DNA from: a bacterium | GTDB lineage: Bacteria; Patescibacteriota; Patescibacteriia; UBA1558; UBA10009 | Reading direction: 5' to 3' | NCBI GenBank assembly: GCA_018672055.1 | Contig: JABHGM010000001.1 | Span: forward strand, 264,884 to 328,883 | DNA: 64,000 bases | Shown here: piece after piece, positions 4,871 to 43,440 of the stretch | How the letters are laid out: each line of letters begins with the position of its first letter | Position numbering within the stretch: position 1 is the first letter of the stretch | The notes under the pieces: generated by a model | What the model saw: only the letters and a program-made list of their open reading frames with translations | The model's database searches: none | What the model was told of the DNA's origin: nothing | Position numbers and translations under genes: made by a program

Positions 4871-4962
4871 CTCTTTTCCCTCCTTATTTTTTTAGATTAT
4901 ATATAATTTAAATTTAAAGTCAAGGTATAATTATTTCACGACACTTGTGATATAATATATAT

Positions 4963-5667
4963 ATGCCAAATAGAGTAACAATTAATTTAGTCTTAAGAAA
5001 ATATATAGAAAGTTTAGAAGCACGTGATATGAATGAAAAGACTATTAGTAATTATTCATATTATTTGAATAGGTTTTTTAAATATTCAAATATTACTAAA
5101 CCTATTGATATATCCGAAGAAAAAGTAAAACTATTTAAAACATACTTACTTAAATTAAAAAAGAATAAAACTACTATTAATTATCATTTAATAGCTATAA
5201 GATCATATTTAAAGTATATGAGATTAAATAAGAAGGAAGTATTAAATTTTAAAAAAGTAAAATTATTTAAAACAACTTTTAAATTACAAACTACTACTAA
5301 AATAAAGATTGATAAATTATTAGAGGCACCAAGTAAAATACAAGCAAGTAAGATAATTAAATTAAGAGATAGAGCTATACTTGAAATAATAATTGAGAAA
5401 GGCTATAAAGTATCAAAGATAGCTAAATTAGATAGAAAGAATTTATTAAAGTTTTCAAAGCAATCAAAATATTATTTAAATAAATATTTAGCTTTAAGAA
5501 CTGATGATGCTCCATATTTATTTATAGGGCATGATAGAGCATTAAAAAAAAGAGAAAAGATTAAAGCGTTAAGTCCAAGATCAATACAACGCTTAGTAGA
5601 AAAATATGTTAAAGTCAGCGGTTTAAAAGATATAACACCAGAGACACTCAGACATATAAAAGGTTGA
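4963..5667 (+). CDS. tyrosine recombinase (XerC/XerD-like), C-terminally truncated before the catalytic Tyr; possibly inactive
   Basis: N-terminal SAM-like core-binding region (ISNYSYYLNRFFKY...INYHLIAIRSYLKY), box I Arg (LRDRAILEII) and box II ETLRHIKG present, but ORF stops about 35 aa short of the normal Tyr-containing end, 40 nt before tRNA-Arg. Confidence 0.5.
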   Translation: MPNRVTINLVLRKYIESLEARDMNEKTISNYSYYLNRFFKYSNITKPIDISEEKVKLFKTYLLKLKKNKTTINYHLIAIRSYLKYMRLNKKEVLNFKKVKLFKTTFKLQTTTKIKIDKLLEAPSKIQASKIIKLRDRAILEIIIEKGYKVSKIAKLDRKNLLKFSKQSKYYLNKYLALRTDDAPYLFIGHDRALKKREKIKALSPRSIQRLVEKYVKVSGLKDITPETLRHIKG

Positions 5668-5707
5668 CTTTTAAAGCTAAAAATGCTAATATATGGCGAG
5701 TTATTAT

Positions 5708-5782
5708 GCCCCGGTAGTTCAACGGATAGAACAACGGCCTTCTAAGCCGTGGATCTAGGTTCGATTCCTAGCCGGGGTACCA
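5708..5782 (+). tRNA. tRNA-Arg (anticodon TCT)
   Basis: Cloverleaf read by eye: acceptor GCCCCGG/CCGGGGT, D-arm AGTTCAACGGATAGAAC, anticodon loop CTTCTAA, T-arm GGTTCGATTCC, encoded CCA. Confidence 0.85.
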
Positions 5783-5783
5783 T

Positions 5784-5858
5784 GGTGCCTATGGTGTAGC
5801 GGTAACACACGGGTTTGTGGTACCTGTATCGAGGGTTCAACTCCCTCTAGGCACCCCA
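5784..5858 (+). tRNA. tRNA-His (anticodon GTG) with G-1 and encoded CCA
   Basis: Extra 5' G paired to discriminator C; anticodon loop TTGTGGT; T-arm GAGGGTTCAACTCCCTC; 3' end ...TAGGCACCCCA. Confidence 0.85.
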
Positions 5859-9193: not shown

Positions 9194-10135
9194 CTATTTC
9201 TTTTTTGGTTTTATGTCTCTTATAATTTTTTTCAAATCAATATTTTTAGTTTTATTAACTGTTACAGGATTGATTAATTTAATAGCATCTTTTGAACTAC
9301 TAGGGAAAAACCATTTTTTAAGTTCTTTCTTAAATCCTAAATCAGCTATTACTTTGGTTAAATCTTTTGTATAATCTTTTTCTTGCTTAGCGATTTCTTT
9401 CCTTCTAACCTTTTTATTTGCATGTTCGAAAATATATTCAAATGCTTGCTGATTTGGGCTATCGAAATTTGGTCTTGATAGTAAAATCCCATTTATTCTT
9501 ATTTCTTGATTTAACTCATCATAATCAACCTCAACCTTAAGAGATTCTTTATGTATGATACTGGAAATTTTTGCATTAAGTTTAGTATTTACGTCTTTTT
9601 TTTCGATTAACGATTTTATTTTTTCGAATAATAAATTCTTTGATTGTACTTGAAAGTCAACATTTATTTCATACAGTAATTCGTCTGTTGGTACTATCTT
9701 ATATTTTTTTACATTTTCTATAAGTGATTTCACGAGTATTTCAGTTTTAGCAGGATTAGCAATGCCAGACATTATTTTTTTTAGCTTTGATATTTTATTA
9801 CTTTTGCCACGGGATATTATTTTTTCTTCTGATAATTCTGTAAGAATAGAGTCAAATAAATTTCTATTAATCACAAATTGTGTATTGTTTATTCTAAAAA
9901 AGTTAGATAAGGAATGTCCTTTTACTATTCCAAGTTTATTAAGTGTAACTGACTTTGTAGGATAGTTGTCATTTATTTCATTAATTTTACTTAGTATATG
10001 ATGAATAGCTTCATCTTTAGATTTAGATGAGAAGTAAAATAAACCTCCTTGTTCAAGTATTTTAATATGTTGGTTAACAACATCCTCGTTCGCCTTAGTT
10101 TGTGTATTTTTATTTACCATACATATACTGTACAT
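9194..10135 (-). CDS. hypothetical protein (313 aa, Lys-rich)
   Basis: ORF track; terminator hairpin AAGATTACGGGCGTAATCTT just downstream on minus strand. Confidence 0.5.
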   Translation of the reverse strand: MYSICMVNKNTQTKANEDVVNQHIKILEQGGLFYFSSKSKDEAIHHILSKINEINDNYPTKSVTLNKLGIVKGHSLSNFFRINNTQFVINRNLFDSILTELSEEKIISRGKSNKISKLKKIMSGIANPAKTEILVKSLIENVKKYKIVPTDELLYEINVDFQVQSKNLLFEKIKSLIEKKDVNTKLNAKISSIIHKESLKVEVDYDELNQEIRINGILLSRPNFDSPNQQAFEYIFEHANKKVRRKEIAKQEKDYTKDLTKVIADLGFKKELKKWFFPSSSKDAIKLINPVTVNKTKNIDLKKIIRDIKPKKK

Positions 10136-10584
10136 TTTTGTCTTAATTTAGGCAATATGTACGCGTGCAAGTCTACTATCAAAAACAATATTATCATATT
10201 TTACTGGTTAAAATGTATGTGTATCAGATAAAATCATTAGTTTTTTATAACAATAAAACTAGACATAAGTGCTAATTTTAAGACAAAAGAGTTTAAAACT
10301 GCTGTAAAGTATAGACAAAATATTGGTATAGTGTTGTGACTATGTAGTACCTTACCATAGTGGAAATTAGGATGTGGTTCTACCCCCCCCCTCTAATTCA
10401 TTTATTTAAAGATTGCGAAATTTAATAGTTAATAGTAATATAAAATAGAAGACAAATTGACAAGATAATAAGACTACATGGCTTATTTGTCGAGTCCAAA
10501 GTATTTATCACAATAATGATTAGGGGGGGATTGATGAAAATCATATATTGTGTAATAATTTAATTTATTAAACTTATTAAAAAT

Positions 10585-11319
10585 ATGAGTGATTACACTA
10601 AAAATTTTTTAACAGACGTTATTTTTAAAGTAGATTTCCCAGTTATTTTAGATTTACAAGATAGTCCGCCAAAGGAGTTTCAAAATGCAATCAAAGAAGA
10701 ATACCCTATTTTAGAGCCGTTTCAACAATTTAGTTTTATGATGGATAAGGAGTCAGAAGAACCCCCTCAGAATCTTAACAGAACTATATGGAAGTTTATG
10801 TCAAAAGATAAAAATAGGTCTATTGAACTTAGCTATCAGTCTTTAATAATAGTTTTTAAAGATTATCAAAGTTATGAAGATTTTAGAGAAATCATAGAAA
10901 AGATAATGGCTATATTTAATGAATTATATAAGAATGTTATAGTAGATAGAATAGGCTTACGATACATTAATCAAATAGAGTTGGAAGAAGAAGATATTTT
11001 TAATTGGGGTGATTATATTAATGACTGTTTGATATCTAATATAGATTTCTTAGAAAACAAAAATCAGATTAAAAGAACCATAGACATATTGGAGCTATCT
11101 TTAGATGATGAAGTTACACTAAATTTCCGATGGGGAATATATAATAGTTTATATCCTAGTGAAGTATCAAAGAAAGAATTCCTTCTAGACTTTGATTGTT
11201 TTACTCGTGTACAGATTGAAAGTGACCAGGTTATTGGAAAATTAGATATTTTTAATAGTATCATAACAGGATATTTTGAGAAAAGCATAGAAGATAAGTT
11301 TAGAGAATTATTAAGATAA
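10585..11319 (+). CDS. uncharacterised protein, resembles the sporadically distributed TIGR04255 family (RIGLRYIN motif)
   Basis: 244 aa; motif ...VDRIGLRYINQIEL... recalled from TIGR04255-type proteins; first gene of a 3-gene co-directional module. Confidence 0.5.
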   Translation: MSDYTKNFLTDVIFKVDFPVILDLQDSPPKEFQNAIKEEYPILEPFQQFSFMMDKESEEPPQNLNRTIWKFMSKDKNRSIELSYQSLIIVFKDYQSYEDFREIIEKIMAIFNELYKNVIVDRIGLRYINQIELEEEDIFNWGDYINDCLISNIDFLENKNQIKRTIDILELSLDDEVTLNFRWGIYNSLYPSEVSKKEFLLDFDCFTRVQIESDQVIGKLDIFNSIITGYFEKSIEDKFRELLR

Positions 11320-11329
11320 TTAAAAAAAT

Positions 11330-11536
11330 ATGTTTAATGGAAATATAAAACTTTCGTCTGCAGAAGAACTTTCGGATTTATCAAAAATCGAAAAGACTGA
11401 ACCAAGCAAAAGAAACACCAATGAATCAAATGATAATGAACTCTCTAGAGATTATGATGTGGTAGGCAGGGAAGAACTAAAATACTATAAATCTAAATCA
11501 TTAAAAGCCAGCCGAATCGTTATAAAACTAGATTAG
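11330..11536 (+). CDS. small hypothetical protein
   Basis: ORF track 68 aa; 10-nt gap from upstream gene, 4-nt gap to downstream gene. Confidence 0.4.
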   Translation: MFNGNIKLSSAEELSDLSKIEKTEPSKRNTNESNDNELSRDYDVVGREELKYYKSKSLKASRIVIKLD

Positions 11537-11540
11537 TGTT

Positions 11541-12113
11541 ATGTTTATAAAGTCCAATAGCGAGAGAATATGTCAAGGGGATATTTTAGAAGATATTGAG
11601 TATTTGTCTCCTATAAGAAATAAAAATGATATTATAATAAATAAATTCATATTACCTTACATAGTAGTTTTGACTCAAGATTGCGATTTGAAGCAAGATT
11701 ATGGAACAAGAAACGATACCACTAGTCAAGATAATGATAAGTTTCTTAAATCATTATTAGTTTGTCCTGGTTATATAGCTAAACAAGTCAAACAAGGCAC
11801 ACATCTGGAAAGTCTGAATTTAAAAATGGGCTATTTAGGGAGTGATATCTGGAAGAGAGTAACTAGAAATGAAGACAAAAGGTATCATTACTTAGAAGGT
11901 AGGAAAAAAGTTGGCGAAGAATTAGTCGATATAGAAGATATAGTCTTAGATTTTAAGCATTATTATACTATACCTTGGGAAACTATGTATGAGCATCATA
12001 AAGATAAATATTTGATATCTTTAGATAAATTATATAGGGAAGATTTATCGCATCGTTTCTCACATTTTTTATCTAGAATTGGATTGCCTGATTTGAAGAC
12101 TAAAGATGAATAA
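11541..12113 (+). CDS. hypothetical protein, third gene of module (acidic motifs QGDIL...VLTQDCDL)
   Basis: ORF track 190 aa; no family recognised by eye. Confidence 0.45.
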   Translation: MFIKSNSERICQGDILEDIEYLSPIRNKNDIIINKFILPYIVVLTQDCDLKQDYGTRNDTTSQDNDKFLKSLLVCPGYIAKQVKQGTHLESLNLKMGYLGSDIWKRVTRNEDKRYHYLEGRKKVGEELVDIEDIVLDFKHYYTIPWETMYEHHKDKYLISLDKLYREDLSHRFSHFLSRIGLPDLKTKDE

Positions 12114-12328
12114 TGATAAAGAAGAAATCAGTAATTTTTTAAATATATGACATCAAAACTGTTTGCATATTTAGGATTAGGTATAATTGTTTATGTTATT
12201 GCTTGTTTTGTTACACAAACTTGGTTGGGCTTAGGCGGTTTTTTAGGAACTTTGTTTGTGGCAGGAATTATCTCTTTTCTTGTAGAAGAAACCGAGAAAA
12301 ATTAGATATTAAGTATTGCAACTAATCA

Positions 12329-12400
12329 ATTTAGTTCGAACATCCTCTACGAAGGGACCCCAAATTACCATCTATATTTATAGGTGGTTTTTTGATATAC
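12329..12400 (+). repeat. intergenic repeat unit R1 (core TTAGTTCGAACATCCTCTACGAAGGGACCCCA + hairpin type a + T-run)
   Basis: Seen directly; hairpin CCATCTATATTTATAGGTGG followed by TTTTTTGATATACT, 28 nt before start of next gene. Confidence 0.85.
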
Positions 12401-12427
12401 TTAATTTATATTATTAAATAAAAATTT

Positions 12428-13486: not shown

Positions 13487-13498
13487 TAACTCATCAAC

Positions 13499-13569
13499 TT
13501 AGTTCGAACATCGTCTACGAAGGGACCCCAAATTACCATCTATGTGTATAGGTGGTTTTTTGATATACT
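13499..13569 (+). repeat. intergenic repeat unit R2 (core with CATCGTC variant + hairpin type a)
   Basis: Seen directly; begins 12 nt after stop of upstream gene. Confidence 0.85.
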
Positions 13570-13597
13570 AAATACATATTATTAAACATTAAATTAT

Positions 13598-14131: not shown

Positions 14132-14183
14132 TTATATTGGTAATTTATTAAACTCTACTGATTATAACTCATAACTTATCAAC

Positions 14184-14250
14184 TTAGTTCGAACATCCTC
14201 TACGAAGGGACCCCACAGAAATCTCTCCTGAAATATGGAGGGATTTTTGT
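14184..14250 (+). repeat. intergenic repeat unit R3 (core + hairpin type b ATCTCTCCTGAAATATGGAGGGAT + T-run)
   Basis: Seen directly; followed by a second hairpin (AGCCTATTAAAATTATAGGCT) serving the convergent minus-strand gene. Confidence 0.85.
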
Positions 14251-14309
14251 ATAAAAAAGCCTATTAAAATTATAGGCTCTTTGTTTTAATAAATTTATTA
14301 TTTAACGAA

Positions 14310-16050: not shown

Positions 16051-16157
16051 TTTTGTCAATCCTAGCTCATATTGTATTAACTTAGTTCGAACATCGTCTA
16101 CGAAGGGACCCCAAATTACCATCTATGTATATAGGTGGTTTTTTGATATACTTAAAT
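16051..16157 (+). repeat. intergenic repeat unit R4 (TTTTGTCAAT -35-like box + core + hairpin type a)
   Basis: Seen directly; upstream part TTTTGTCAATCCTAGCTCATATTGTATTAAC aligns with R7. Confidence 0.85.
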
Positions 16158-16173
16158 TAATTATTAATAAAAT

Positions 16174-18525: not shown

Positions 18526-18578
18526 TCTGACACTCACCCCAACAGAAATCTCTCCTGAAATATGGAGGGATTTTTTTA
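18526..18578 (+). repeat. intergenic repeat unit R6 (CTGACACTCACCCCA variant + hairpin type b)
   Basis: Seen directly; followed by GGGGCAGACTATTGTCTGCCCC hairpin for the convergent gene. Confidence 0.75.
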
Positions 18579-18629
18579 TATAAAAAAGGGGGCAGACTAT
18601 TGTCTGCCCCATTGAATATAACTTTGTTG

Positions 18630-19243: not shown

Positions 19244-19330
19244 CCTATCTCATAATGTATCAATTTAGTTCGAACATCGTCTACGAAGGGACTCCACAGA
19301 AATCTCTCCTGAAATATGGAGGGATTTTTG
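19244..19330 (+). repeat. intergenic repeat unit R7 (TTTTGTCAAC box + core + hairpin type b)
   Basis: Seen directly. Confidence 0.85.
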
Positions 19331-19379
19331 TATAAAAAAGCCCACGAAAATTTTGTGGGCTTGTTAGTGATGTCACATA

Positions 19380-19698: not shown

Positions 19699-19835
19699 AT
19701 TTTGTCAATCATAGCTTAAAATCTTCTCATATTCCTTCCAAATATCTTTGAATGTATTACATAGGAAGATTTTAATAAAGTTACGACTGCCACCCCATCA
19801 AAAAATCATTCCATCAGGGATGGTTTTTTGTTATA
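19699..19835 (+). repeat. intergenic repeat unit R8 (TTTTGTCAAT box + second-family core ...TTTTAATAAAGTTACGACTGCCACCCCA + short hairpin + T6)
   Basis: Seen directly; same subfamily as R10. Confidence 0.8.
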
Positions 19836-20782: not shown

Positions 20783-20912
20783 ATGTCAACCCTAAATAAT
20801 AACCTTCATATACTGTTTCCAAACATCTCTGAATATACTATTTAAGAAAATTTTAATAAAGTTACGACTGCCACCCCACAGAAATCTCTCCTGAAATATG
20901 GAGGGATTTTTT
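20783..20912 (+). repeat. intergenic repeat unit R10 (ATATGTCAAC box + second-family core + hairpin type b)
   Basis: Seen directly; followed by ACACCCAGTTTAGTAATACTGGGTGT hairpin for the convergent gene. Confidence 0.8.
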
Positions 20913-20965
20913 GTAAAAAAATACACCCAGTTTAGTAATACTGGGTGTATACTTTATTTAGTTTA

Positions 20966-38141: not shown

Positions 38142-41006
38142 ATGACCAACCCAAATTCTAATTTTGATTCAGAAACTGAGACAAAAACATCAGATTTTGA
38201 TATTGCAAAAGAGCCTAAGACAGAAAAAGCTCCTTTTTTATTTAAAAAAAGTAAATCAGGCCTTGAATTTAATAGATATTTTACTAAAAAAGATATTCAT
38301 CCTTATGATGAGATTACTTGGGAATCTAGAGATGCTTCCATAACTAATTCTGAGGGTGAAGTAGTATTTTCTCAAAAAGGCGTTGAAATACCTAAGACTT
38401 GGTCACAAACTGCTACTAATATTGCTGTACCTCATTACTTTAGAGGTAGAGTTGGCACTAAAGACAGAGAGACTAGTGCTAAGCAAATGGTTGACAGAGT
38501 AGCTCAAACTGTTTCTAACTGGGGTTTAGAGGGTGATTATTTTAAATCTGAAGATGATGCTAAAATATTTGAAACTGAACTTACAGCTATTCTTATAAAT
38601 CAACGGGCTGCATTTAATAGCCCTGTTTGGTATAACGTAGGAATTGAAGAACATCCACAGTGTAGTGCTTGTTTTATTAATTCTGTTCAAGATGATATGC
38701 GTTCCATTCTTAACTTATCAGTTACTGAAGGAATGCTTTTTAAATTCGGTTCAGGTACAGGTACTAATTTATCTGTACTTCGTTCTTCTAAAGAATATTT
38801 AGCTAATTCTAATGGTAAGGCTTCTGGTCCTGTTTCATTTATGAAGGGCTTTGATGCTTTTGCTGGAGTTATTAAATCTGGTGGTAAAACAAGAAGAGCT
38901 GCTAAGATGGTTATTTTAAATGTAGAGCATCCAGATATTGAAGAGTTTATTAACTGTAAAGCACATGAAGAGAAAAAAGCTTGGGCTTTAATTGAAATGG
39001 GTTATGATGGTTCTTTAAATGGTGAAGCTTATGGTTCTGTATTTTTTCAAAATGCTAACAACTCAGTAAGAGTTGTAGATAATTTCATGCAATCTGTTAA
39101 AGATGAAAAGGATTGGAATACTAAATATGTTTCAACTGGTGAAGTAGCAGATACTTACAAAGCAAAAGATTTAATGGATCAGATTTGTGAAGCTACTTGG
39201 ACTTGTGGTGATCCTGGTTTACAATTTCATACAACTATAAATAAATGGCATACTTGTCCAGAGAGTGCAGTAATTAATGCTTCTAATCCATGTTCTGAAT
39301 ATATGTTTGTTGATGATAGTGCTTGTAACTTATCATCTATTAATTTATTAAAATATAGACAAGAAGATGGTAGTTTTGATGTCGAAGGTTTTAAACACAC
39401 AGTTGAAATAATGATAACTGCTCAAGAAATAATAGTTGAGAATTCAAGTTATCCAACTCCAGCTATTGAACAGAATTCTCATGACTTCAGACCACTTGGT
39501 CTTGGTTATGCTAATTTAGGAGCTATCCTTATGAGTAATGGTTTACCTTATGATAGTATTGAAGGTAGAAATTTTGCAGGAGCTGTTACCTCTCTTATGA
39601 CTGGTTGGGCTAATTATCAATCTGCTAAACTTGCTCAAGTTAAGGAACCATTTAAATATTATGAATTAAATAGTAAATCTATGCTTAATGTTATTAGTAT
39701 GCATAGAGAATTAGCCTATAAATTAGGCGCTTCTGGTGTATCACCAGAACTTTTAAAAGCTTCACAAGATGTTTGGGATAAAGCATATGATTTAGGACAA
39801 GAAGCAGGTTACAGGAATGCTCAAGTTTCTGTATTAGCACCTACTGGTACTATTGGTTTTTTAATGGATTGTGATACTACTGGTATTGAACCTGATATTG
39901 CTTTAGTTAAGTATAAATGGTTAGTTGGTGGTGGTATGCTTAAGATTGTAAATCAAACTGTACCATTAGCTCTTAAAACTCTAGATTACAAAGATGAAGA
40001 AATTGACAGTATTTTAGAATATATTGATAAGAATGAAACTATTGAAGGGGCTCCTAAATTAAAAGAAGAACATATTCCAATATTTGATTGTGCTTTTAAA
40101 CCTAAAAATGGTGATAGGACTATTCATTATATGGGTCATATTAGAATGATGTCAGCAGCTCAACAATTTTTATCAGGTGCTATTTCTAAGACAGTTAATT
40201 TACCTGAAGATGCTACTGTAGCAGATATTAAAGAAGTATATATGACAGGTTGGGAACTTGGACTTAAAGCTATTGCAGTATATCGTGATAATTCAAAGAG
40301 AACTCAACCACTTACCCTTAAAGATAGTGAAGTAGGTGCTATAAAGAGTGATGTAATTAAACCGGCTCGTCATAGAATGCCTATGGAAAGAACTGCTATA
40401 ACTCATAAGTTTTCTATTGCCAGCCATGAAGGTTATTTAACAGTTGGATTATATGAAGATGGACAGCCTGGAGAATTATTTATTTCTATGTCTAAAGAAG
40501 GTAGTGTTATATCTGGACTTATGGATTCATTTGCTGTTTCCATATCAGTTGGTTTGCAATACGGAGTACCTCTTCCAGTTTTAGTTAATAGATTTATTCA
40601 TACACGTTTTGAACCATCAGGTTTTACTAATAATCCAAATATTAGAATAGCTAAATCAATTGTTGATTATATTTTTAGATGGTTAGCTATTAAATTTTTA
40701 CCTGCTGAAGATTTAATGAAAGTAGGTTTAAATAATATTGAATCATTAACTAATGGTGATAGCAAAGGTGATTTAGAGAAGTTAACTAAGCTTGCTAGTA
40801 AAGAGGAAAAAGTAGAAGATGATAAAGAAGATGAAGTGGCTTATCAACAAACAGCTTTAAATTTAGAAAAAGAAGATAGTAGTGATAATACAACATTTGA
40901 CATGCAAGCTGATGCCCCTATTTGTGATACTTGTGGTAGTATGATGGTAAGAAGCGGTGCTTGTTACAAATGTATGAACTGTGGAAGCTCATCTGGTTGT
41001 AGTTAG
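38142..41006 (+). CDS. nrdJ: adenosylcobalamin-dependent (class II) ribonucleotide reductase
   Basis: 954 aa; typical NrdJ core and C-terminal zinc ribbon CDTCGSMMVRSGACYKCMNCGSS. Confidence 0.9.
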   Translation: MTNPNSNFDSETETKTSDFDIAKEPKTEKAPFLFKKSKSGLEFNRYFTKKDIHPYDEITWESRDASITNSEGEVVFSQKGVEIPKTWSQTATNIAVPHYFRGRVGTKDRETSAKQMVDRVAQTVSNWGLEGDYFKSEDDAKIFETELTAILINQRAAFNSPVWYNVGIEEHPQCSACFINSVQDDMRSILNLSVTEGMLFKFGSGTGTNLSVLRSSKEYLANSNGKASGPVSFMKGFDAFAGVIKSGGKTRRAAKMVILNVEHPDIEEFINCKAHEEKKAWALIEMGYDGSLNGEAYGSVFFQNANNSVRVVDNFMQSVKDEKDWNTKYVSTGEVADTYKAKDLMDQICEATWTCGDPGLQFHTTINKWHTCPESAVINASNPCSEYMFVDDSACNLSSINLLKYRQEDGSFDVEGFKHTVEIMITAQEIIVENSSYPTPAIEQNSHDFRPLGLGYANLGAILMSNGLPYDSIEGRNFAGAVTSLMTGWANYQSAKLAQVKEPFKYYELNSKSMLNVISMHRELAYKLGASGVSPELLKASQDVWDKAYDLGQEAGYRNAQVSVLAPTGTIGFLMDCDTTGIEPDIALVKYKWLVGGGMLKIVNQTVPLALKTLDYKDEEIDSILEYIDKNETIEGAPKLKEEHIPIFDCAFKPKNGDRTIHYMGHIRMMSAAQQFLSGAISKTVNLPEDATVADIKEVYMTGWELGLKAIAVYRDNSKRTQPLTLKDSEVGAIKSDVIKPARHRMPMERTAITHKFSIASHEGYLTVGLYEDGQPGELFISMSKEGSVISGLMDSFAVSISVGLQYGVPLPVLVNRFIHTRFEPSGFTNNPNIRIAKSIVDYIFRWLAIKFLPAEDLMKVGLNNIESLTNGDSKGDLEKLTKLASKEEKVEDDKEDEVAYQQTALNLEKEDSSDNTTFDMQADAPICDTCGSMMVRSGACYKCMNCGSSSGCS

Positions 41007-41274
41007 ATTTTTAACAAAATATTTTTAAATTAAGGAACAGGGTTAAAATCCTTGGCAGTCGCGCTACTGTAACTTAAATATTATTTAAGAAGTCAGGAAC
41101 TTAATTTAAGATTTATTTAATCATGTCTCTTCGCGAAAAAGAGTAGGTGATGATTTCTATTTTGAAAATGATCTTGAATAATTTGAGGTTATTCAAAAAT
41201 AGAAATTAAATCCCTCTTCTTTTTAGAAGAGGGATTTTGTTTAAGTATTGCAAATTAAAATAAAGGAGAGAGAA

Positions 41275-41613
41275 TTGAAAAGAAATAACTTTATCTACTT
41301 AATATTAGTTAGTTTATTTGGATATCTATTTGGTTTCCATAGAATAAATTATCGTACTATTAGAGATATACTTGATGAGCATCATCCAGGTTGGCAAGCT
41401 TGGGATTATCCAGGTATTAATGGTCAGGGTATTTTGTCTGCGCCAGGTTTGGGTAGTAATGGAATTTTTGAGATTAAAGTAAATGGTCAGCATATATTAG
41501 GATCATCAGCAAATATTGATTTTCCTATTACCAGATTTGATCATTTAGAAATTAATAACTGGATATATCGTGGTCAAAAAAATAATCAAGCTAAACCAAA
41601 TCAAGTTCGTTAA
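41275..41613 (+). CDS. hypothetical secreted/membrane-anchored protein
   Basis: ORF 41248..41613; AAGGAGAG RBS lies inside the listed N-terminus, so TTG at 41275 is the more likely start; N-terminal hydrophobic helix. Confidence 0.4.
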   Translation: MKRNNFIYLILVSLFGYLFGFHRINYRTIRDILDEHHPGWQAWDYPGINGQGILSAPGLGSNGIFEIKVNGQHILGSSANIDFPITRFDHLEINNWIYRGQKNNQAKPNQVR

Positions 41614-41661: not shown

Positions 41662-43440
41662 ATGAAAAAGAAATTTATTATTTTAACTATCCTTTGCTTA
41701 GTTTTAAGCTTTAGTTTAGTTAGAGCAGAAGTAGATCAATCAACTATTGATTATTTAGTTAGTGAATCTCAGAATCAATGGATTACTATGGCTCTTAGCG
41801 CTGTTGGTTATTCTAATCCTGATATTAGTTATATAGATTCTCTTAATTTAATTACAGCTAATGATTATTCAAAAACTATTTTAGCTTTAACTTCTGTAAA
41901 TGAGAACCCCTATGATTATAATAGTAAAAATTATGTATCATATGTAGAAGATTTTGTAAATAATAATCAAATTGGTGATCCTACTTTATTAAATGATGAT
42001 TTTTGGGGTGTTATGGCTTTAAGATCATCAGGTTATGATGTAAATAATAGTGTTATTCAAGGAAGTAAAGATTTTCTTTTAAGTAATCAAAATTCTGACG
42101 GTGGTTTTAGTTATGTAGTTGGAGGATCTAGTGATACTAATGATACTGCCGCTGCTATCATGGCTTTACTTGAAGCAGGTTTAGAAAATAGTTCTTCTGA
42201 ACTTCAAAATGCTATTAATTATCTTCAAAGTTTTCAAAATTCTGATGGTGGATTTCCATATGTATCTGGCAGTGTTTCTGATTCTGGTAGTACTGCTTGG
42301 GTTATATCAGCTCTCTCTAAATCTGGTATTGATATTAATAGTTTAGATCAAGATGGTAATACACCTTTTACTTTTTTAGATAGCCTTTTTAATGAAGATG
42401 GTTCATATAAGTGGGTTTTAGATGATGAACAAGGTTCTGCTATGATGACATCATATGTAGCTGTAGCTCTATCAGATAGTACCTATCCTGTTAATTACTA
42501 TACTCCCGAGGTTGTAACTAATGAGTTAGTTAATTTAAGAATTGAAAGTAGTAGTGAAACAGTTTGTGATATTCAGCTTGAAGCTAGTGATGCTTTAGAA
42601 GTTGTAGTTAATGCTTCCTCAATTTGTGGTTTTGATTATAATATAGAAGAAACAGGTTATGGTCCATATTTAAATATGATAGATGGTGAAGTGGCAGAGG
42701 GTGAATCTGGTTGGCTCTATTTGGTAAATTGGCTATCACCTCCTGTAGGAGCTAGTGAATATGAATTATTAAATGGTGACTCAGTTCTTTGGTATTATGG
42801 TGGGTGGGATATTCAACCACTTCGTTTAACTTTAAGTGATGAACAAATAGAATTAAGTGAAAGTGTTACTATTCTAGTTGAATATTTTAATGGCATAGAT
42901 TGGTTTGTAGCTAACGAAGCTTCAGTAAGTGTAAATAATGAAATTCATTTAACTGATGATACAGGGCAGGTAGTTTTAAATTTAGCTTCAAATGGTAGTT
43001 ATGATGTTTATGCTTCTAAAGAGAATTTTATACGTAGTAATACAGAAGAATTAATAGTTGGTTCAAGTAATAATTCTCAAACAGTTAACTTAACAGTTAA
43101 TATTGATAATCCAGGAGGAGGCGGTGGAGATGATGTAATATCTTTTATAGTTGATACTAATAGTTTTGATTTTGGAACTATGCAACCTGGTGGTGAAGCT
43201 ATTCAATCATTAAATGTTACTAATAATGGTACTACAGCTCTTTACTTAGAAGTAACTGCTACAGGTGATGATGTTTTTCAAGATAACCTATATGTAGATA
43301 ATGAATTTTGGGAAAATTATTCAGATGACTATGGCTTAAGTCAAACAAAAGAGGTAGAATTAAAATTACAAATTCCTACTAATTATGCAGGAAGTGGTCA
43401 AAAACAAGGTGACCTAATTTTCTGGGCTAATGGTAATTAA
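41662..43440 (+). CDS. secreted protein with prenyltransferase/squalene-cyclase-type alpha-alpha toroid repeats and C-terminal Ig-like region
   Basis: Signal peptide; repeated QNSDGGF...AAA.MAL motifs (NQNSDGGFSYVVGG...AAAIMALLEAG; FQNSDGGFPYVSGS...TAWVISALSKSG). Confidence 0.6.
   Translation: MKKKFIILTILCLVLSFSLVRAEVDQSTIDYLVSESQNQWITMALSAVGYSNPDISYIDSLNLITANDYSKTILALTSVNENPYDYNSKNYVSYVEDFVNNNQIGDPTLLNDDFWGVMALRSSGYDVNNSVIQGSKDFLLSNQNSDGGFSYVVGGSSDTNDTAAAIMALLEAGLENSSSELQNAINYLQSFQNSDGGFPYVSGSVSDSGSTAWVISALSKSGIDINSLDQDGNTPFTFLDSLFNEDGSYKWVLDDEQGSAMMTSYVAVALSDSTYPVNYYTPEVVTNELVNLRIESSSETVCDIQLEASDALEVVVNASSICGFDYNIEETGYGPYLNMIDGEVAEGESGWLYLVNWLSPPVGASEYELLNGDSVLWYYGGWDIQPLRLTLSDEQIELSESVTILVEYFNGIDWFVANEASVSVNNEIHLTDDTGQVVLNLASNGSYDVYASKENFIRSNTEELIVGSSNNSQTVNLTVNIDNPGGGGGDDVISFIVDTNSFDFGTMQPGGEAIQSLNVTNNGTTALYLEVTATGDDVFQDNLYVDNEFWENYSDDYGLSQTKEVELKLQIPTNYAGSGQKQGDLIFWANGN

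Follow-up and report, generated by a model that had tools for sequence, protein, structure and literature searches.

Paired C9 and G7 tracts in a divergent control region on a Patescibacteria mobile island: a possible genetic switch

Two homopolymers, a run of nine C and a run of seven G, bracket a short segment between divergently transcribed genes in a 64,000-nucleotide (nt) stretch of a Patescibacteria genome (GenBank assembly GCA_018672055.1, contig JABHGM010000001.1, positions 264,884 to 328,883), here called the window, in whose coordinates positions are given throughout. The paired tracts are real and beyond chance, and they are statistically striking for this genome. The putative operator/promoter block of a divergent control region, part of a mobile island, is precisely bordered by them; the gene for a 313-amino-acid (aa) protein lies on one side of that region and a cassette headed by a TIGR04255 gene on the other. 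An earlier note, made from the sequence alone, had likened the arrangement both to an invertible promoter of the fim kind and to slipped-strand phase-variable tracts. That interpretation is partly supported, in that the anatomy was right while switching is unproven. A genetic on/off switch is possible; none was observed in the assemblies compared.

The exceptional character of the tracts is evident from composition. The window is 29% G+C, and C9 and G7 are its sole runs of at least six C or six G. Base composition predicts, for the window, 5.8e-4 C runs of nine or more and 0.17 G runs of seven or more, so these homopolymers lie far above expectation, as those of slipped-strand loci do. Other loci with a GC content below 40%, some 480 kb in all, yielded two G/C runs of at least seven, both of length 7. 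The left tract reads CCCCCCCCC at 10383-10391, then TCTAAT, which on the − strand makes the arm ATTAGAGGGGGG; the right arm is ATTAGGGGGGGA at 10519-10530. The earlier note had placed and described both runs correctly (C9 at 10383-10391, G7 at 10523-10529). The inverted repeat, given there as 12-14 bp around ~125 bp, is confirmed: 11 of the 12 positions match between the arms, ATTAGnGGGGG being common to both with a single A/G mismatch, and the two tracts enclose 131 nt. The arms are unequal, the tract lengths being 9 and 7. As in an inverton, inverted repeats flank an intergenic segment shorter than 300 bp. The 12-mer ATTAGRGGGGGG, allowing at most one mismatch, is present in the 64 kb at these two sites only. 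Extension of the repeat inward past ATTA (AATAA-TGA-TTAG...) is not significant (p ~0.07-0.2), and ungapped inverted repeats of like length are common in this AT-rich DNA. The signal resides in the two homopolymers and their closeness.

Comparison with other assemblies establishes that the tracts exist as written. Copies of the locus were gathered by exact-protein look-ups, which collapse near-identical places, and the window was compared with six further assemblies: ERZ27237618 (L001-L003), JGI (Joint Genome Institute) 3300004277 (L004), JGI 3300025656 (L005), ERZ27246020 (L006), ERZ4201015 (L091) and ERZ4200980 (L094). A fragment in ERZ23491215 (L092) covers G7 only. C9 is the same in 7 assemblies and G7 in 8, every one of the seven sequences that span both tracts has the same orientation, and the tract sequence agrees across separately built MEGAHIT, SPAdes and JGI assemblies. 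Identity between the window and the six further assemblies indicates that the tracts are not an assembly artefact.

Poly-G artefacts do occur in two-colour Illumina chemistry, and a short segment bounded by inverted repeats on a mobile island could be a miniature transposable element with the tracts as its terminal repeats. Both explanations are very improbable. The first runs against the same sequence having been recovered by independent MEGAHIT, SPAdes and JGI assemblies. The second would lead one to expect a target-site duplication, which is lacking from the flanks (...GGTTCTA and ATTGATG...), and further copies, whereas the 131-nt segment has no second copy in the window, the fetched loci or the scanned viral and metagenome collections. 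Exact-pattern scans with the left flank gave no copies in metagenome_contigs or viral_contigs, nor did a scan of metagenome_contigs with the interior, and a scan of genome_contigs seeded with the TIGR04255 protein gave no match.

What the assemblies can say about variation depends on where they come from. Over 1-20 kb the copies share 99.8-100% identity with the window, and the 2012 time series from Saanich Inlet (PMC5663217) supplied at least two of the sources, 3300004277 and the HAWL17 sample SAMN05224530. The assemblies are one clonal population seen as consensus, at least partly from a single fjord, and not independent populations. Minority orientations or tract lengths would therefore be invisible in them. 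With this scope, no second orientation of the 131-nt segment was seen at consensus level in the seven spanning sequences, and no contig in the assemblies compared breaks at the inverted repeats. The earlier note had suggested inspecting other assemblies for mixed tract lengths and both orientations; done on consensus sequences, this returned a single orientation and fixed C9 and G7, an outcome in the direction of refutation. The contigs of two low-coverage assemblies, L006 (MEGAHIT) and L091 (SPAdes), start within 10 bp of each other at 10191 and 10201, in the left-hand half of the region between the genes; L094 reads through this zone. A local fall in coverage, in DNA that is extremely AT-rich, may account for these starts without any structural breakpoint. 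L007 (1-837) and L092 were considered as rearrangements and rejected, the HAWL17 scaffolds being chimeric, with the locus joined to foreign DNA; the tail of L092 (494-604) encodes a eukaryotic myosin-head motif.

The features of the control region are collected in Table 1. The flanking genes are those the earlier note named, around an intergenic region that it had put at 440 bp. A search for sigma-70-like matches between 9900 and 10800 gave one leading candidate on each strand. G7 is 1 nt from the TTGATG hexamer of the + strand candidate and 56-62 nt upstream of the cassette ATG, and cassette transcription is inferred to start near 10566, with a leader of ~19 nt. C9 is 248-256 nt from the start codon of the 313-aa gene and 194 nt from that of the cassette. 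As for the boxes picked out earlier, TTGACA is present on the + strand at 10457-10462, and so is TTGTCA-17-TATTAC on the − strand, but its TATTAC is without the conserved final T. The ends of the quasi-palindrome in the central block are themselves −35-like hexamers, TTGACA (+) and TCGACA (−).

Table 1. Features in and around the divergent control region, in window coordinates
Feature	Position	Strand	Description
C9 homopolymer (G9 on − strand)	10383-10391		with TCTAAT (10392-10397) forms left arm of inverted repeat
G7 homopolymer	10523-10529		with ATTA (10519-10522) forms right arm; ends 1 nt 5' of −35-like hexamer
AT-rich segment between tracts	10392-10522		131 nt
Divergent intergenic region	10136-10584		449 bp; between 313-aa gene (−) and TIGR04255 gene (+)
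Best sigma-70-like match, TCGACA-17-TATTAT	10465-10493	−	10/12; inside bracketed segment, faces 313-aa gene
Best + strand match, TTGATG-17-AATAAT with TG extension (TTGATG-17-TGtAATAAT)	10531-10559	+	faces TIGR04255 cassette
Operator-like quasi-palindrome, TTGACAAGATAATAAGAC-tacat-GGCTTATTTGTCGA	10457-10493		from sequence; hairpin in predicted folds
AGACAAA, four copies	10137-43 (−); 10281-87, 10313-19, 10450-56 (+)		candidate regulator sites
313-aa orphan gene	9194-10135	−
Three-gene cassette	10585-12113	+	TIGR04255 gene 10585-11319; 68-aa gene 11330-11536; 190-aa 'QDCDL' gene 11541-12113
Large serine recombinase, 524 aa	5847-7421	−	island edge; phrog_95, E = 3.9e-78

Other repeated motifs crowd the same region. 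The four copies of AGACAAA, out of 20 matches in the whole window, compare with ~0.14 expected in 449 bp, a ~30-fold enrichment. An exact 11-mer, TTAAGACAAAA, which takes in two of these AGACAAA copies, occurs as two inverted copies at 10136-46 and 10278-88 and nowhere else in the 64 kb. AGACAAA and TTAAGACAAAA are possible binding sites for the predicted winged-helix protein encoded by the 313-aa gene. The TTAAGACAAAA pair was also considered as a second module of the C9/G7 type and set aside: the two 131-nt interiors are unrelated, and their equal size is taken as coincidence.

Could G7 instead serve translation? Almost no gene of this genome has a Shine-Dalgarno sequence, so G7 is not a ribosome-binding site. 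A 9-codon mini-ORF (open reading frame) at 10534, with G7 as its Shine-Dalgarno sequence, was rejected for the same reason and is probably meaningless. In many genes of the window a −10-like box lies 5-8 nt 5' of the ATG, as in TGATATAAT-N6-ATG at 4963 (4938-4965), and the sequence suggests that leaderless or very short-leader messenger RNAs are frequent in this organism.

The leading proposal, tentative and more probably wrong than right, is that the tracts are slippage-prone cis-regulatory spacers, one at either edge of the central operator/promoter block. That block would be bound by a regulator, probably the 313-aa protein, and the length of each G:C run would set the helical phasing of the block, and its distance, relative to the promoter or sites flanking it there. 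With 7-9 G:C pairs the runs are intrinsically liable to slip during replication, and rare changes of one pair up or down could retune or switch expression, those at G7 acting on the cassette and those at C9 on the regulator side. A control block with two sides, each having its own tract, would account for the pairing. Support for such spacers comes from the quasi-palindrome within the block, the four AGACAAA copies, the divergent gene for a predicted winged-helix protein, the exclusion of G7 as a ribosome-binding site, and the tracts themselves, real and exceptional.

The mode of action would resemble that of the C-stretch in the Bordetella fim promoters. The Bordetella pertussis fim2, fim3 and fimX C-stretch and the bhuR tract are likewise G:C homopolymers in an intergenic promoter region beside the core promoter; there an activator-binding element is on one side of the tract and the promoter on the other, and tract length sets transcription (PMC1891110). 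The same study treats tracts 21-80 nt upstream as the class likeliest to overlap a promoter, and describes the fim C-stretch as well as bhuR, where the tract lies 5 nt before a −35 box (PMC1891110). The position of G7 falls within the 21-80 nt class and is counted in favour of the phasing model. The Bordetella tracts, at 10-19 nt and variable among strains, differ from those here, which are 7 and 9 nt long, invariant in the assemblies, two in number and in mirror orientation.

Several observations weigh against spacers of this kind. Tract length was not polymorphic, at consensus level, in the 7 assemblies covering C9 or the 8 covering G7, and G/C runs of at least seven are absent from five related TIGR04255 cassette loci. 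C9 falls within the length range of known mutable tracts and G7 at its short end. Both start codons, moreover, are over 190 nt away from C9, and tracts beyond 150 nt upstream are considered unlikely to regulate (PMC1891110). Promoter-like matches are no commoner than in shuffled sequence (7 found, 6.2 expected), so both promoters are to be read as predictions, and the −35/−10 match beside the G9 of the − strand, TAGAAC-17-TATGGT, scores just 7/12. With the slipped-strand reading of the earlier note the anatomy is compatible, C9 being slippage-prone and G7 abutting a −35-like hexamer, but length variation is lacking across the assemblies. It is viable, and fim-like inversion is the weaker of the two readings that the note had offered. 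That the paired tracts form a working phase-variation device, whether by dual slippage or by inversion, toggling the TIGR04255 cassette and the winged-helix regulator, is a doubtful claim.

The locus also has likenesses to the poly-G/C contingency loci of Campylobacter and Helicobacter, which are covered in part by PMC8355987 and otherwise generally known: a small genome of ~30% GC, G/C runs of at least eight that are otherwise absent and so mark hypermutable loci, and a density of about one locus per 60 kb. Tracts in those genera are mostly intragenic and vary among isolates and within cultures, whereas the present ones are intergenic, paired and invariant. A literature search found no such poly-G/C contingency system reported in Patescibacteria.

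The inverted-repeat geometry raises the alternative that a recombinase flips the 131-nt segment between its 11-12-bp repeats, redirecting TCGACA-17-TATTAT from the 313-aa gene to the cassette and creating a left junction that would read CCCCCCCTAATCATTATTG... The repeats of Escherichia coli fimS are just 9 bp, and they too surround a promoter-bearing segment between neighbouring genes. Invertons in general mostly enclose less than 300 bp between short inverted repeats, in intergenic DNA between divergent or adjacent genes, and the segment here is of typical size (PMC11602134). The best promoter-like site (10/12) lies inside it, such matches being at shuffle frequency, and the island also carries a serine recombinase gene. 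The fim-like switch of the earlier note fits in its geometry, in the short repeats, the segment size and the internal promoter-like site. It finds no support in a second orientation or an adjacent invertase, and inversion is improbable. At consensus level all seven spanning sequences have one orientation, with no contig breaks at the repeats, unlike a switch of the fimS type. No small invertase of the Hin or FimB type adjoins the tracts. The sole intact recombinase nearby, ~3 kb away, is the 524-aa large serine integrase at the island border, and a 234-aa tyrosine-recombinase-like ORF matches a catalytic-domain profile at positions 71-135 of 172 only, hence part of that domain. The arms, moreover, are essentially homopolymer without recombinase-site substructure, and the extension of the repeat is not significant.

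A neutral history would account for much of the same evidence. A G:C run could have grown by slippage and been copied in mirror image, ATTAG included, by an inverted-repeat template switch or an insertion, leaving a functionless relic that persists in a very young clonal population. Identity of about 100% over 3-20 kb among the assemblies means that there has been no time for decay, so that conservation carries no signal; the arms differ in length and carry a mismatch; and relatives are without the tracts. The earlier note had held that one orientation and fixed tract lengths in all reads, together with tracts missing from related genomes, would point to chance or artefact; they are indeed missing from the five related cassette loci. 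A relic is unlikely all the same, while deserving serious weight. Two such tracts 131 nt apart and otherwise absent from 64 kb are very unlikely without a common cause, G:C runs are eroded in AT-biased genomes, the tracts mark the precise edges of the promoter/operator block and adjoin a −35-like box, and template switching across a 131-nt loop would be unusual. A candidate paralogue for the tract census (P0048) was rejected as not being from the same genome, its own having 37% GC.

Invariance could also mean that the tracts are static protein sites. The two ATTAG-G(6+) boxes would then be half-sites for the island regulator or for a host factor, which would loop or insulate the ~140-bp block between them. 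This accounts for the pairing and the mirror orientation as well as for the fixed lengths and orientation, a motif unique in the window would give high specificity in an AT-rich genome, and a predicted winged-helix protein is encoded divergently. There is precedent in looping pairs such as AraC I1-O2 and GalR OE-OI, where two sites ~100-200 bp apart surround a promoter and a regulator gene runs divergently; the AraC dimer bridges I1 and O2. Unlike those pairs, each candidate site here is one G-run half-site, and the two differ in length: G9, interrupted by an A, on one arm and G7 on the other. DNA-binding domains of the OmpR/PhoB type usually bind tandem direct repeats near the −35 box, which tells against the mirror-image boxes, and the AGACAAA repeats are better candidates for the 313-aa protein. 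The motif has no further copies in the 64 kb. Static paired sites are an unlikely account.

The complementarity of the tracts would have a further consequence if both were transcribed, since C9 and G7 could pair within one transcript and close a structured leader or small RNA of ~150 nt. Minimum-free-energy and centroid folds do pair the two tracts, with z = −2.6 for the + strand (2 of 200 shuffles fold as well) and z = −1.9 in a 226-nt context. Pairing of a C run with a G run is trivial, however, and the segment had no Rfam match at gathering score or at E<=10. No promoter-like site on either strand would yield a transcript over both tracts, bar two inside the cassette coding sequence. There is no ribosome-binding site for G7 to sequester in a genome without Shine-Dalgarno sequences, and no homologous intergenic sequences were found that could reveal covariation. 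We give an RNA-level element little credence.

The regulator assumed by the spacer proposal is an orphan. The 313-aa protein has no close homologue among 5.8 billion proteins, but its C-terminal ~100 aa (residues ~195-305) are common to 527 remote cluster representatives. This domain is modelled with a predicted local distance difference test score (pLDDT) above 90, and Foldseek matches it to the DNA-binding domains of ToxR, SaeR, AdeR and PhoP, with template-modelling (TM) scores to the target of 0.5-0.63 and weak E-values of 0.1-1. On this modelled fold the 313-aa protein is probably a DNA-binding regulator with an OmpR/PhoB-like winged helix. The domain (window 9194-9800) defines a large unannotated family, mostly of proteins of 220-260 aa, with a reverse-transcriptase fusion in one member (P0200, RVT_1); the family has no Pfam match save a faint one to DUF7430 in one member.

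On the other side of the control region, the 244-aa ORF at 10585-11319 passes the TIGR04255 model (127.7 bits against a cut-off of 30, residues 4-243). The cassette recurs in other lineages at 43-48% identity (L088 4001-5541; L090 4001-5566), as a TIGR04255 protein, a protein of 62-88 aa and one of ~195 aa with an invariant QDCDL, and twice, here and in one of those lineages, it lies on an island carrying a large serine recombinase. The TIGR04255 protein is modelled at pLDDT 93, and its best PDB matches are weak, to TBP-like and AdoMetDC-like folds at TM ~0.3. A literature search found no paper mentioning the TIGR04255 family, and PADLOC and PHROGs gave nothing informative on the neighbouring genes. 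In the low-coverage L006 and L091 the TIGR04255 gene carries D214G (A>G 11225) and the nonsense change Q215* (C>T 11227), 2 nt apart, and one of the two assemblies also has E90G in the 190-aa gene (window 11809). These changes could be inactivation in part of the population, or low-coverage errors. Some NCBI metagenome-assembled genomes (MAGs) annotate the 190-aa gene as an N-terminally shortened 147-aa gene (P0062).

Most Patescibacteria have yet to be cultured; they are ultra-small bacteria, presumed to live attached to host cells. We know of nothing on how they generate phenotypic heterogeneity. If the tracts are a switch, no earlier programmed stochastic switch would have been described in Patescibacteria, also known as the candidate phyla radiation (CPR), and contingency-locus strategies would extend to bacteria that are neither pathogens nor gut commensals. 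The TIGR04255 cassette would gain a first functional handle, as a costly function in need of gating, for instance defence or a toxin. Should the tracts prove static, the locus remains a compact and unusually well-marked divergent control region. Metatranscriptomes exist for Saanich Inlet and could be used to study the locus.

The island on which the control region lies begins at a tRNA-His gene (5785-5858), the last 12 nt of which, at its 3' end, are overlapped by the stop codon of the 524-aa recombinase gene; small orphan genes, including one for an HTH_17 protein, come next. The 234-aa tyrosine-recombinase-like ORF (window 4963-5858 region) ends just before a tRNA-Arg gene, and the site beside the tRNA pair looks like a recombination hot spot. 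The polynucleotide phosphorylase (PNPase) of the window is at most 61-62% identical to those of species-representative genomes, and its best matches are Patescibacteria/CPR MAGs, including bins from Saanich Inlet.

Elsewhere in the window, an adenosylcobalamin (AdoCbl, B12) riboswitch (41008-41155, 74.6 bits) lies between the gene for a 954-aa protein (38142-41006) and genes at 41248-41613 and 41662-43440. Beyond the cassette, an element of ~100 nt is present in five copies on the + strand (12322-12412, 13490-13580, 14167-14262, 16070-16160 and 19248-19343), with shorter pieces near 18536-18586, 19736-19804 and 20873-20921. Its near-invariant core of ~32 nt, TTAGTTCGAACATCsTCTACGAAGGGACyCCA, is followed by a hairpin and a T-run, and the hairpin falls into two subtypes with compensatory changes, ACCATCTAT...ATAGGTGGT versus CTCTCC...GGAGGG. 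The element matches no Rfam family. Three of the copies lie directly 5' of lipoprotein-like genes. The element may be a leader, a small RNA or a promoter-terminator module that is mobile.

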